A stretch of DNA of 64,000 bases, taken from positions 2,784,001 to 2,848,000 of the forward strand of contig OZ219754.1 in NCBI GenBank assembly GCA_964291295.2. Reading direction: 5' to 3'. Shown here in pieces: positions 2,002 to 5,272 of the stretch. The translations under genes and the position numbers were made by a program. Within the stretch, counting starts at the first letter, position 1, and the number at the start of each line of letters is the position of its first letter. The DNA is from an uncultured Candidatus Binatia bacterium. GTDB lineage: Bacteria > Desulfobacterota > Binatia > UBA9968 > JAJDTQ01. Below the pieces are notes generated by a model. That model was not told the DNA's origin. It ran no database searches and saw nothing but the letters and a program-made list of their open reading frames with translations.

Positions 2002-2225
2002 GTCGGCAACCGACGAGGCCCTTGCCGGGGATGTCCGGCAACGAAGGGCCGGCAACGAAACCGTCCCGTCTTGACCCACCGAGGCTGATCCATGAACTGT
2101 TGCAGCACCCGCGCCGTTCGGCGCAGCCGCTCCGGCGCCGGCACTTGGGAGACCACCCGCCCGGCCGACAAGTGGAACAAATGGAGGGACTGTCCGGTGC
2201 GGCTCCTCAAGGGTGCGGCCCGGTA

Positions 2226-2690
2226 ATGCTGCGGGCCATCCAGCGGTTCTTCGACAGCCGCATCGACCCCGGCCACGGCGACGTCCGGCAATCGGACCGC
2301 CACCGGTTGCAGGTGGCCACCGGCGCGTTGCTGATCGAGATGATGCGCACGGACGCGGAGGCCACCGAAGGCGAACGCGCGGTGGTGCTGGCGGCGTTGC
2401 GGAGCAAGTTCGACCTCACCGACGAAGAAACCCGTGAGTTGGTGAAACTGGCCGAGGTCGAAGCCCGCGACGCCATCGATCACTACCAGTTCACATCTCT
2501 CATCAAGACGGCCTTCTCCCGGGAGCAGAAGTGCAAGGTGGTGGAATACCTTTGGGCCGTGGCCTACGCGGACAAGAACGTCGACAAGCACGAAGAATAC
2601 CTGGTGCGAAAGATCGCCGGCCTCATCGGCGTTTCACACAAGGAATTCATCGAGGCAAAGCTGCGGGTCCGGGACGCGCGCACCGCCTGA
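2226..2690 (+). CDS. TerB family (tellurite resistance-like) protein
   Basis: LQVATGALLIEMMRTD...IDHYQFTSLI...LWAVAYADKNVDKHEEYLVRKIAGLIGV; start taken at ATG 2226. Confidence 0.8.
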   Translation: MLRAIQRFFDSRIDPGHGDVRQSDRHRLQVATGALLIEMMRTDAEATEGERAVVLAALRSKFDLTDEETRELVKLAEVEARDAIDHYQFTSLIKTAFSREQKCKVVEYLWAVAYADKNVDKHEEYLVRKIAGLIGVSHKEFIEAKLRVRDARTA

Positions 2691-2751
2691 GTCCGGCAGG
2701 GTCGGTCCCGCACCATCCGCCGGCGGAGACCACCTTCCGGACCAACACGCC

Positions 2752-3093
2752 TCAAGGCAGCCTGCCCAGCCTCAACGGCAGCGGCGTGCCCAGCCACAGC
2801 GAGCGGTCCTGGTGGTCGCCCCGGTGCTCTCCGGTATCGGGATGGACCAGGATGTCCAGGTCTTCCCGGTTGAGCATCAGCCACGGCACCACCCGGGCGA
2901 ACTCGTCGGGCGCGAAGGCGACCTGATACATGGCCTTGGCGTGAGGGCCCACCGGCACATCGTGCCAGCGCCCCAGCACGACGTCGAAGCGGGAACCCAG
3001 GCCTTGGCGCACCCGGTCCGCGACCTCACGGGTGGCGGGGTCGTAGTAGACGTGAGCGTGATAGCCGGCAATCTTCGATGGCTGTTTCGACAT
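2752..3093 (-). CDS. DOPA 4,5-dioxygenase family protein
   Basis: YHAHVYYD, GRWHDVPVGPH, WLMLNR, ILVHPDTG...DH...WLG motifs. Confidence 0.88.
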   Translation of the reverse strand: MSKQPSKIAGYHAHVYYDPATREVADRVRQGLGSRFDVVLGRWHDVPVGPHAKAMYQVAFAPDEFARVVPWLMLNREDLDILVHPDTGEHRGDHQDRSLWLGTPLPLRLGRLP

Positions 3094-3199
3094 GGTATGG
3101 TCTCGGTCGGTTCCCCTGGGGCGGGTCAAGGCCCATGACACTATGCCCATGACAAGGGCTCCCCTTGGCAGAGGAAACCCTCATGACAAAGCCCCATGA

Positions 3200-3615
3200 C
3201 AAAGCGGGCTCTCCTCCGTTTGGAGAGCCCGCTCCCGGCGTGCATCAACGCCGGTACGAACTGTCTGTTTTTTTCCGTGGCTCCGCGGTGTCGGCTCATC
3301 CGGGATCGGTCTTCCGGGAGGGGAGCCCCCTCCTCCGCTGCTTTCCTGTCCCCTGAAGTCGCGGCGTGCCTGGCGGCTTGCCGCTGTGTTGTCCAACACT
3401 CGAGTCGGGACGGTCAGCCGATGGACCGCGTACGGCGAAACCCCGGGAACCAGCCTGCCCGCCTTTCACGGGCGTTCATTGTCGGGCGGAGTGGTTTTTG
3501 TCATCGGACACCTCCCGGAGTCAGGATGACCGAGGCGATGACCCCGAATCGCTCACATCGAATCGCCGATCCAGTGCGCTCGACCCACGCCTCGTGCCCG
3601 TTCGCGAACAAGGCC
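3200..3615 (-). ncRNA. candidate structured ncRNA or long leader RNA, family not recognised
   Basis: Bounded by a near-consensus promoter and a terminator hairpin; no long credible ORF; long interrupted helix (3275-3302 with 3411-3435) enclosing several hairpins. Confidence 0.45.
3201..3233 (-). terminator. intrinsic terminator-like hairpin
   Basis: 12-bp perfect stem AGCGGGCTCTCC (3203-3214) / GGAGAGCCCGCT (3222-3233) with a 7-nt loop; short U tail (TTTGT) on the minus strand. Confidence 0.6.
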
Positions 3616-3620
3616 ATTCA

Positions 3621-3658
3621 AGTCTAGTGCCGCTCCGCACCGGTTGTCAAGAAAAAAA
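3621..3658 (-). promoter_or_regulatory. strong sigma70-type promoter
   Basis: TTGACA (3650-3645)-N18-TAGACT (3626-3621), with a T7 tract just upstream (UP-element-like). Confidence 0.65.
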
Positions 3659-3690
3659 TGCCGCGCGGGAGATATCGGCGGAAGACAGCG

Positions 3691-3719
3691 TTGAACGGCA
3701 ACGACAGGCCTGCTATGGG
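3691..3719 (+). promoter_or_regulatory. putative promoter for the GMC oxidoreductase (divergent from the previous one)
   Basis: TTGAAC-N17-TATGGG with TG extended -10. Confidence 0.35.
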
Positions 3720-3751
3720 TACGCAGCAATTGTCGAACCACACGAGAGGAG

Positions 3752-5272
3752 ATGATGGCAAACGACCCGGATGTGATCGTGGTGGGAGGCGGCTCGGCGG
3801 GTTGTGTAGCCGCGGCGCGCCTGTCCGAGGACCCGAAGCGGAGGGTTCTGCTGCTGGAGGCCGGACCCGACCCGCAGCCAATCCCCGAGCTGGTGGCCGT
3901 GGCCGCCGAACGCGTACGCCTGCTGCTCGAAACGCCCTACCTCAACATGTACCCCACCGAGCGCAAGCTGGATGGAAGCATCTTCTATTCCCTCGCCGGA
4001 AAGATCATGGGCGGCGGTTCCTCGGTAAACGTGATGTCGGTCATCCGTCCCATCAAGGCCGACATGGATGCGTGGGTGGCGGCCGGCAACCCCGGGTGGT
4101 CGTGGGAGCGCGTGGTGCCGTACCTCAAACGCATCGAAAACGATCGGGACCATCCCGGCAGCCCCGACCACGGTCACGGCGGGCCGCTCTATTTCGAACG
4201 GCACTACCGCTTCGGCCAGGAAGTCCCCAAGCCGGTACAGACCTTCATGGACGCGGCCCGCAGTCTGGGGCTGCCGGAAAGCGATGTGAACGATCCGAAT
4301 CCGTTCGGGGTCTGCACGTCACCGTTCAACATCAGGGACGGCATGCGCCAGTCGACCACGACAGCCTATCTGGACGCGGCCCGGGGCCGGCCCAATCTCA
4401 CGGTCATCGCCGAAGCCCCGGTCGTGTCGCTCTCCTTGTCGGGCAACCACGTCACGGGCGTGCACTACGAGAAAGACCGCCAGCGGAAAACCGCGGTCGG
4501 AGCCGAGGTGCTGCTGACCGCCGGCGCATTCCACAGCCCCCACATCCTCATGCTCTCGGGCATCGGTCCGGCGGCAGAGTTGCAACGGCACGGCATCGAA
4601 GTGCGTTACCACCGGCCCGGCGTGGGCGAGAATTATCAGGACCACGCCATGCTGCACATGGGCTTCGAGGGGCGCGGCACCTTCGACGTGGACTGGGTGG
4701 TGCCGCCCTTCCGTCTCATCACCAAGAGCGATCCGTCACGGGAGACCGGGGACTTCCATATCTTCATGCGCCCTCCCACGGTGCTGGAGGGCGTGGGCCG
4801 CACATTGAACATCTCGGCCGCACTGCTGGAGCAGCGCAACCGCGGCCGGGTGTTCCTCAGAAGCGCCGACCCGCACGAACTGCCGGGGGTGGACGCCCGG
4901 ATGCTGGAAGACCCGGGCGACATCACCGCCATGGTGGCCGCCATGGAGTTTCTGGAGTTGCTGACCCGGACCGGAGACATGCCCGAGTTCTACGGGCCGC
5001 CGATCCAGCCCCGGCGCGGCCAGGACTGGAGCCGGTTCGCGCGCACGGCCTTCGACAGCTATCACCACGCCGCCGGCACCTGTCTCATGGGACCGGCGTC
5101 CAACGCCATGAGCGTGGTGGACGAGGAACTGCGGGTTCACGGCATCGACAACCTGCGGGTGGCCGACGCCTCCATCATGCCTGCCGTCACGCACGCCAAC
5201 ACCAATGTGACCTGCATGATGATCGGCGAGCGGGCCGCGGACTTCATCAAGGGTGGTTCGGGAGGCTGCTGA
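3752..5272 (+). CDS. GMC family oxidoreductase (choline dehydrogenase-like)
   Basis: VVGGGSAG FAD motif, GKIMGGGSSVN, YHHAAGTCLMG, LRVADASIMP...ANTN; GAGAGGAG RBS. Confidence 0.92.
   Translation: MMANDPDVIVVGGGSAGCVAAARLSEDPKRRVLLLEAGPDPQPIPELVAVAAERVRLLLETPYLNMYPTERKLDGSIFYSLAGKIMGGGSSVNVMSVIRPIKADMDAWVAAGNPGWSWERVVPYLKRIENDRDHPGSPDHGHGGPLYFERHYRFGQEVPKPVQTFMDAARSLGLPESDVNDPNPFGVCTSPFNIRDGMRQSTTTAYLDAARGRPNLTVIAEAPVVSLSLSGNHVTGVHYEKDRQRKTAVGAEVLLTAGAFHSPHILMLSGIGPAAELQRHGIEVRYHRPGVGENYQDHAMLHMGFEGRGTFDVDWVVPPFRLITKSDPSRETGDFHIFMRPPTVLEGVGRTLNISAALLEQRNRGRVFLRSADPHELPGVDARMLEDPGDITAMVAAMEFLELLTRTGDMPEFYGPPIQPRRGQDWSRFARTAFDSYHHAAGTCLMGPASNAMSVVDEELRVHGIDNLRVADASIMPAVTHANTNVTCMMIGERAADFIKGGSGGC

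Follow-up and report, generated by a model that had tools for sequence, protein, structure and literature searches.

The systems closest to the element reported here are trp-type attenuators, the leaders of Salmonella mgtA and mgtCBR, the TnaC arrest peptide and terminator-type riboswitches. Termination in the mgtA and mgtCBR leaders is Rho-dependent. TnaC, a peptide of 24 residues associated with tnaA, ends in Arg-Pro and carries Trp and Asp at fixed spacing from its C-terminal Pro. Its arrest has been described as taking place at the UGA stop codon, through inhibition of RF2 (PMC8450073). For the mgtA and mgtCBR leaders, the published accounts describe a proline-codon- and EF-P-sensitive translation of a short open reading frame that selects between stem-loops and thereby lets transcription continue into the coding region (PMC3641672, PMC6460261). 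The terminated product of a trp attenuator, rnTrpL of Sinorhizobium, has been reported as a discrete small RNA (PMC6614838). Here we analyse an element on the minus strand of a 64,000-nt stretch of DNA (hereafter, the window; positions 2,784,001 to 2,848,000 of contig OZ219754.1, assembly GCA_964291295.2) from an uncultured Candidatus Binatia bacterium. The element lies directly upstream of a gene of the PF08883 (DOPA_dioxygen) family. It is probably the 5′ leader of the PF08883 mRNA, a lineage-specific transcription attenuator, and not a free-standing RNA gene. It is real and conserved, and it matches no described RNA family. The sensor of the attenuator may be a ligand-binding core, ribosome pausing on a short upstream open reading frame (uORF), or both. 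Conservation was assessed on 26 aligned loci, namely the one in the window and 25 others from the same genus, which together with two new metagenome contigs make 28 distinct sequences. All positions refer to the window and mostly run downwards along the RNA.

Like trp-type attenuators, the leader has a short open reading frame preceded by a Shine-Dalgarno (SD) sequence and an intrinsic terminator directly upstream of the structural gene. It may also form a comparable chain of alternative pairings, in which two strands, S1 and S2, would pair with each other, S2 with the 5′ arm of the terminator, and the terminator arms with one another. It differs from them in that a conserved structured core of about 150 nt resides in what would be the ‘1:2’ helix, and in that the uORF stops about 13 nt short of segment 1 and does not cover it. 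Moreover, the conserved features of the uORF are a Pro-Pro-Asp motif and an Arg-Pro-stop end, not a run of codons for an amino acid that the operon makes. What the leader would control is a lone PF08883 gene rather than a biosynthetic operon, and the codons of the uORF have no match in a pathway. The mgtA and mgtCBR leaders have in common with the element a long structured RNA and a proline-containing short frame, and both EF-P and Rho are encoded in the genome studied here. However, there is no similarity to these leaders in sequence or in Rfam, the gene class and the phylum are different, and the terminator is intrinsic. As in TnaC, Arg-Pro is followed by UGA (in 21 of the 28 sequences). Yet the peptide is only 12 residues long, has no Trp, has its Asp at position −4 and precedes a PF08883 gene; it is followed by a large structured domain and an intrinsic terminator, and its arrest is putative. 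Finally, the element resembles terminator-type riboswitches in having a conserved core of several helices, in which unpaired blocks are invariant while peripheral hairpins vary, a putative closing helix whose 3′ strand could alternatively pair with the 5′ arm of the terminator, and an intrinsic terminator before the gene. Unlike these, it corresponds to none of 4227 Rfam families, has been found before a single gene and in a single genus, and has a uORF upstream of its putative aptamer.

A preliminary description, made from the letters of the window alone, had proposed a structured RNA with its own promoter and terminator and had read it either as a stand-alone RNA with CsrB-like logic or as an attenuator leader for the DOPA-dioxygenase gene. 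The latter is the reading that our results support, because the terminator lies 25–45 nt before the ATG of the gene in most loci and because one related genome carries a natural fusion of the promoter to the gene. The promoter itself, a T-tract followed by TTGACA-N18-TAGACT at 3658-3621 on the minus strand, was confirmed both by the sequence and by a promoter scan. It matches the consensus hexamers at 10 of 12 positions and is the only promoter-like site in 2500-4500, where 0.3 would be expected in shuffled sequences. The −35 hexamer is identical in 26/26 aligned loci, while the −10 hexamer varies only among TAGACT, TAGAAT, TAGAGT, TAGATT, TACACT, TAAACT and TAGGAT; the mean column conservation of the whole promoter block is 0.86. 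From its inferred start near 3614, the predicted leader RNA would extend for about 415 nt to 3200, where the proposed terminator hairpin is indeed present (Table 1) and is followed by a U-tract. The ATG of the PF08883 gene comes 25–45 nt past the U-tract in 24 of the 26 loci (107–108 nt in this genome and one other) and is preceded by a conserved ribosome-binding region, CUGACCGAGGCAGA. Such spacing leaves no room for a promoter belonging to the gene alone, and no second promoter-like site for the gene was found by the scan of 2500-4500.

The fusion was found in genome G011 (locus L034, 1510-1625 in leader orientation), where a natural deletion has joined the promoter and the first hairpin, H1, to the ribosome-binding site of the PF08883 gene. 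The ends of the deletion fall within a direct repeat, AGAGCCCG, common to the 5′ arm of stem P2 and the 3′ arm of the terminator. With promoter and H1 fused to the gene, the promoter must serve the PF08883 gene. These data also bear on the possibility that the element is a stand-alone small RNA acting in trans, perhaps a dual-function one that also encodes the 12-residue peptide, with a leaky terminator and the downstream gene as a mere passenger. Such an RNA would fit the strong promoter and terminator, the succession of A-rich linker, hairpins and U-tail, and the very high conservation. Furthermore, terminated attenuator RNAs can work in trans, as reported for rnTrpL of Sinorhizobium (PMC6614838), and a trans-acting role would be compatible with that of a leader. 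As a replacement for the leader reading it is nevertheless improbable: in 24 of the 26 loci there is no room for a separate gene promoter, the G011 deletion keeps the promoter with the gene, and the element is a single-copy one that always stands 5′ of the same gene.

The leader is widespread in its genus and has not been found beyond it. A DNA search of 60 relatives matched it in 26 of the 27 other genomes of the same genus, with 67–76% identity where the match is full-length. The whole unit is kept in 25 of these 27 genomes; G011 retains only the first ~70 nt or so and G013 nothing. In the 33 genomes from the two other families of the order, the same search returned two short matches at chance level only. 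The leader is present once in its own genome. An exact-pattern scan of species genomes gave 23 matches, all of them same-genus loci already found (17 of the genomes are labelled ‘Candidatus Binatia’ by their submitters and the rest Syntrophobacterales, Deltaproteobacteria or Thermodesulfobacteriota), and a scan of metagenomes gave three contigs, two of them new. A covariance model of the core (R1), applied with strict filters to 151 genomes of the class, recovered the own genome and 7 of 8 others of the genus but none of the remaining 142. With filters off, R1 was also run on 20 loci (64,778 bases), comprising 19 with PF08883 homologues from G013 and other genera and the G011 locus; the best score, 13.7 bits (E = 0.059), was taken as chance. 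Sixty-five of 201 genomes from the class encode a PF08883 homologue, and outside the genus the regions upstream of it are unrelated, with no similar leader recognisable by eye. Since the core model is silent outside the genus even upstream of the homologous gene, the leader appears to be a young, genus-restricted invention.

Within the genus, column conservation reaches 0.85–0.96 in the leader blocks, as against 0.79 at third codon positions of the PF08883 gene and 0.59 in neighbouring intergenic DNA. The leader is thus under purifying selection of its own. Searches for a known family gave nothing: none of the 4227 Rfam families matched the window at gathering threshold, relaxing the limit to E = 10 produced two noise matches in 3000-3800, and among 11 homologous loci the same limit produced five unrelated matches, none recurring. 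Our literature search returned no paper on riboswitches in Binatota and, among the papers listed, none on a riboswitch regulating a DOPA-dioxygenase gene; those listed for the latter concern biosensors or engineering, judging by their titles and the opening of their abstracts. As for G013 (locus L070), a smaller genome, it keeps the PF08883 gene and has a similar promoter-like sequence, TCGACA...TAGATT, upstream of it; the ~260 nt between this site and the gene are AT-richer, unrelated to the leader and without a match to the core model.

Table 1. Features of the PF08883 leader, its gene and the flanking genes, in the order of the leader RNA, with flanking genes last
Feature	Position	Strand	Description	Support
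T-tract	3652..3658	-	UP-element-like, directly 5′ of the −35 hexamer	conserved in 26-locus alignment
Promoter	3621..3650	-	Sigma-70-type; TTGACA 3650-3645, 18-nt spacer, TAGACT 3626-3621; predicted start near 3614	
H1	3597..3612	-	5′ hairpin, also a perfect 12-bp DNA palindrome CGTTCGCGAACG, just past the −10 hexamer	
P2	3532..3593	-	variable stem, arms 3593-3588 and 3537-3532, around a lineage-specific insert	6/8 pairs with pair-keeping changes on both sides
H3	3500..3530	-	GUCAUC 3530-3525 with GAUGAC 3505-3500; SD GGGAGG 3516-3511 in loop, AUG of uORF in stem	
uORF	3466..3504	-	12 codons, MTKTTPPDNERP, then UGA	
H4	3457..3473	-	hairpin GCCCGU/GCGGGC (3473-3468 with 3462-3457), stop codon of uORF in loop	
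S1	3443..3452	-	would supply the 5′ strand of closing helix P0 or that of a small local hairpin	
Core	3300..3436	-	helices Pa-Pf; holds Pf 3399-3386 and variable hairpins V2 3384-3361 and V3 3333-3317	
S2a and S2	3278..3301	-	S2a 3301-3291, S2 3288-3278, GAGCC-containing; S2 proposed 3′ strand of P0; both candidate antiterminator strands	
A-rich linker	3255..3275	-	poorly conserved (mean 0.59)	
H6	3235..3254	-	7-bp hairpin with 6-nt loop, 2 nt 5′ of the terminator	95.6% paired; 2/7 pairs changed on both sides
Terminator	3200..3234	-	intrinsic, GC-rich hairpin, 3234-3222 with 3214-3202, and short U-tract	
Spacer	3094..3199	-	terminator to gene; conserved ribosome-binding region just 5′ of ATG; ~80 nt extra in this genome	
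PF08883 gene	2752..3093	-	DOPA_dioxygen family, 113-aa product; regulated gene	Pfam E = 9.3e-33
TerB-domain gene	2022-2690	+	convergent, past the PF08883 gene	
GMC oxidoreductase gene	3752-5272	+	divergent neighbour	

The predicted RNA (3614-3200) folds at −193 kcal/mol, lower than its dinucleotide shuffles at −174.6 ± 6.2 kcal/mol (z = −2.95; 3 of 100 shuffles are as good). A consensus fold of 73 pairs holds across the 26 sequences, with 97.5% of cells pairing compared to 38–49% when the partners are slid. Nine of its pairs show changes on both sides, versus 3.8 in shuffles, and only one of 500 shuffles reaches nine; these pairs are located in P2 (six), H6 (two) and core helix Pb (one). The insert within P2 varies in length between genomes. 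In H1, 94% of cells are paired and the changes are one-sided only; with a mean conservation of 0.96, it is also the sole hairpin of the leader retained in G011. The arms of H3, whose pairing is predicted, are invariant in 26/26 rows, which makes covariation impossible. H4 is paired in all cells, five of its six pairs being invariant and one varying on one side. The terminator hairpin, for which 11 pairs were counted, is paired in 98.6% of cells and has one-sided changes at six pairs. Its U-tract reads UUUGU here and UUUCUUU or UUUUCUUU in other genomes; because it is short in this genome, a simple terminator scan omits the site. When every pair of columns was screened for covarying helices by brute force, the outcome was too noisy for use.

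The core, some 150 nt long, is nearly invariant (conservation 0.85–0.90), with the blocks GGCUGACCGUCCC.ACUC..GUGUUGG, GGGGA...GCAGC and UCCCGGAA, and the core helices, which almost never vary, are paired in 94–100% of cells. Set into this constant background are two hairpins of changing size: V2 falls into eight length classes (20–36 nt) and V3 into seven (15–29 nt), and each forms a hairpin in every case. A folded core is therefore suggested by extreme conservation together with variable-length hairpins at fixed positions, and not by covariation.

Several of the helices drawn in the preliminary description reappear in this fold: the hairpins at 3333-3317 and 3399-3386, the latter with a GGAC loop, and the one of 7 bp at 3254-3235. 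At 3373-3384, on the other hand, the hairpin as drawn would need a 2-nt loop, and the minimum-energy fold pairs 3384-3380 with 3365-3361 instead. A further proposal, a 19-bp interrupted helix between 3435-3411 and 3302-3275 that would close a multibranch domain, has all of its 19 pairs in this genome but is not conserved: over 27 distinct homologues, pairing amounts to 66.1% of cells, a level not above that of shuffles, compared with 96–97.5% for the consensus fold. We have therefore rejected it as the conserved fold, which gives the two strands other partners. Some species might still adopt it as an alternative conformer. Between 3593 and 3204 the leader has four copies of the motif GAGCC (in the P2 5′ arm, S2a, S2 and the terminator 3′ arm) and three GGCUC-like complements, so that many alternative pairings are possible. 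P2 and the terminator nearly duplicate each other in most species, but not in the present one.

The absence of a long reading frame from the element, noted earlier, holds true, but a conserved 12-codon uORF with a strong SD had been overlooked. The SD (AGGAGG or GGGAGG), a 6-nt spacer and the AUG are found in 28/28 sequences, and the encoded peptides follow the pattern M-T-x-x-x-P-P-D-x-x-R-P-stop. T2, P6, P7 and P12 are invariant, whereas D8 is kept in 26 of the 28 (F in two) and R11 in 27 (C in one). At codons 2 (ACA, ACG, ACU), 6 (CCG, CCA) and 7 (CCC, CCG) the variation is synonymous only, as predicted by selection on the peptide and not on the RNA alone. The stop codon follows codon 12 directly in 22 sequences (UGA in 21, UAG in one) and comes one codon later in four. 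The two remaining uORFs run longer, to 30 codons in L032 and 16 codons in all in L033. The former ends at a UGA within the invariant core block GGCUGACC, and a ribosome would have to translate through S1 to reach it. None of the frames past the uORF stays open throughout the 28 sequences, and V2 and V3 differ in length by non-multiples of three. The pattern occurs once in the own genome, and no paralogous uORF was found there.

Ribosomes depend on EF-P at a number of motifs, Pro-Pro-Asp being one of them, and a Pro codon before UGA makes for slow termination. Both the Pro-Pro-Asp and the Arg-Pro-UGA end of the uORF look like pause motifs. Loss of EF-P has been reported to uncouple translation from transcription at polyproline sequences and to increase termination (PMC5021804).

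How might these parts work together? By default, transcription would end at the leader hairpin, an RNA of about 410 nt would be released and the PF08883 gene would be off; expression would come only from read-through of the terminator. We tentatively propose a specific switch, which we consider possible but less likely than not. In it, S1 (3452-3443) and S2 (3288-3278) would form a helix, P0, that closes the core. With P0 formed, the terminator would be free to form; with P0 not formed, S2 or the neighbouring S2a would pair with the 5′ arm of the terminator (GGCUCUCC) and act as antiterminator. The result would be a chain of pairings 1:2, 2:3 and 3:4 with the entire core inside the 1:2 helix. 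P0 could have two inputs. One would be the binding of a ligand or factor to the invariant core, which once folded, and perhaps ligand-bound, would close P0 and lead to termination. The other would be a ribosome lingering on the uORF, whose stop codon lies ~13 nt before S1. A figure legend in one study (PMC6238534, Fig. 1F) puts the RNase R cut 17 nt past the ribosomal P-site; with this reach, a ribosome at the stop codon would in most species end 1–2 nt short of S1. Where the uORF is longer, as in two species, the ribosome would cover S1 outright.

The proposed pairings have some backing. S1 (UGGUUCCCGG) and S2 (CCGNGGAGCCA) form the best inter-segment duplex in 28/28 sequences, and in several cases their variants match each other: UGGUUCCC goes with GGGAGCCA, CGGCUUC with GAAGCUG, and UGGCUCUCCC with GGGGAGCCA. 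In a second model, R2, and its fitted alignment, P0 is paired in 89% of cells and has two pairs changed on both sides, consistent with the helix but without significant covariation. S2 is also complementary to the terminator 5′ arm (GGGGAGCC-A-CG with CG-GGCUCUCC), at −15 to −20 kcal/mol in 16 of the 28 sequences. A sliding-window duplex scan placed it among the top three partners of that arm in 18 sequences and fourth in one.

A more ambitious version, which would be an attenuator of a type not described before, combines both inputs. The ~150-nt core would be a new class of aptamer for a PF08883-linked metabolite and the 12-residue peptide (PPD...RP-UGA) would arrest its own ribosome at, or just before, termination of the uORF, the two jointly setting P0 and hence read-through. 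We regard this version as unlikely. In a bolder variant still, the peptide itself, with half as many residues as TnaC, would sense a small molecule and arrest the ribosome in response.

A number of observations speak against the attenuator reading and the proposed switch. The S1:S2 energy is at least 2 standard deviations better than that of shuffles in only 8 of the 28 sequences and is worse than the shuffle mean in two. S2 is outside the five best partners of the terminator 5′ arm in nine sequences, is fourth in the sequence of this window, and has competitors for that arm in the P2 5′ arm, S2a and the H4 5′ arm. The terminator is far stabler than every candidate antiterminator, and leaders folded without the terminator 3′ arm had no consistent partner for the 5′ arm, with the caveat that the pattern marking the terminator start was misplaced in 7/28 rows. 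Within the core, Pc, Pd, Pe, Pf and the base of V3 are virtually constant, which leaves covariation unable to confirm the core helices; the three pairs changed on both sides in the core alone are indistinguishable from the 2.0 seen in shuffles (137 of 500 reach this number). Restriction of the leader to one gene in one genus deprives us of a gene-context clue to the ligand, and both G011 and G013 do without the leader. H1, being a perfect palindrome, may be the operator of a repressor protein instead of, or beside, an RNA hairpin, in which case some of the control might be exerted on the DNA itself. The sequencing runs that match 2700-3900 are three of DNA type from one study, with no RNA run among them, and the start, the 3′ end and read-through are all predicted.

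Some of these points can be turned into an explanation in which the RNA is a leader but does not regulate termination. It would be a 5′ untranslated region that stabilises the mRNA or acts at the level of translation, control would come from a repressor that binds DNA at the H1 palindrome, and the terminator would be constitutively leaky. That H1 lies just past the −10 hexamer and is the only part of the leader kept in G011 would fit the repressor, and the failure of folding and duplex scans to yield a single antiterminator, like the lack of covariation in the core helices, would be expected if there were no switch. We nonetheless think this quite improbable, because it leaves unexplained the ~150 nt of near-invariant core, the invariant SD and uORF, and the presence of a conserved 11–13-bp terminator before the gene.

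It is highly improbable that the element is a divergent housekeeping RNA or an unrecognised protein-coding gene. RNase P RNA (307 bits), tmRNA (201 bits) and SRP RNA (70.9 bits) were all found elsewhere in the genome above their cut-offs, which bears out the earlier statement that the element is none of them. Of the housekeeping RNAs considered, 6S RNA (RF00013) alone went undetected in the 99%-complete own genome (G000); the model matches just 5 of 14 control genomes, and its silence may reflect limited sensitivity. A multibranched fold with a uORF predicted to be translated is, in any case, unlike the rod of 6S RNA, and the element is missing from G011 and G013, members of the same genus. 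A protein-coding gene is contradicted by the frames past the uORF and the length differences of V2 and V3 described above. The remaining proposal of the preliminary description, a stand-alone CsrB/RsmZ-like sponge that would titrate a CsrA-type protein through its GGA motifs, has a negligible probability: the 3′ half of the own copy is indeed rich in GGA (12 versus 6.1 ± 2.0 in mononucleotide shuffles) and one of 11 homologues gives a weak RsmW match over the terminator region (25.6 bits against a gathering score of 52; E = 1.8), but only two GGA triplets, one of them the SD, are invariant in the 26 sequences, no model of clan CL00106 matches the window at threshold, there is no separation between the RNA and the next gene, and the genome, 99.13% complete, has no csrA (PF02599, which does match in the controls E. 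coli, B. subtilis and T. maritima).

The attenuator leader would add an unannotated, well-conserved cis-regulatory RNA to a phylum-level lineage known from metagenome-assembled genomes only. Its layout is unusual, with a strong SD and a 12-codon uORF of the Pro-Pro-Asp/Arg-Pro-stop type, then a near-invariant structured domain, then a terminator. The regulated protein fits no NCBIfam model, and its nearest solved structures, 2PEB and 2NYH, are both described as ‘putative dioxygenase’ and have no assigned role. Should the core have a ligand, it would provide the first functional clue to bacterial PF08883 proteins; if the finding proves ordinary, the leader would be one more lineage-specific attenuator.

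As to the surroundings of the leader, the PF08883 unit is monocistronic, because the convergent TerB-domain gene comes next. The divergent GMC oxidoreductase scores 328 bits with the model of MftG (mycofactocin dehydrogenase), close to but below its cut-off of 387. The ~80-nt insertion that separates the terminator from the PF08883 ATG in this genome is filled by four copies of TGTCATGRG (3132-3201, minus strand); other genomes lack the insertion. There are seven copies of this motif in the window compared with 1.18 expected, and one other such cluster exists in the genome. The cluster at 3132-3201 may serve as an array of sites for a regulator, or it may be what is left of a small insertion.

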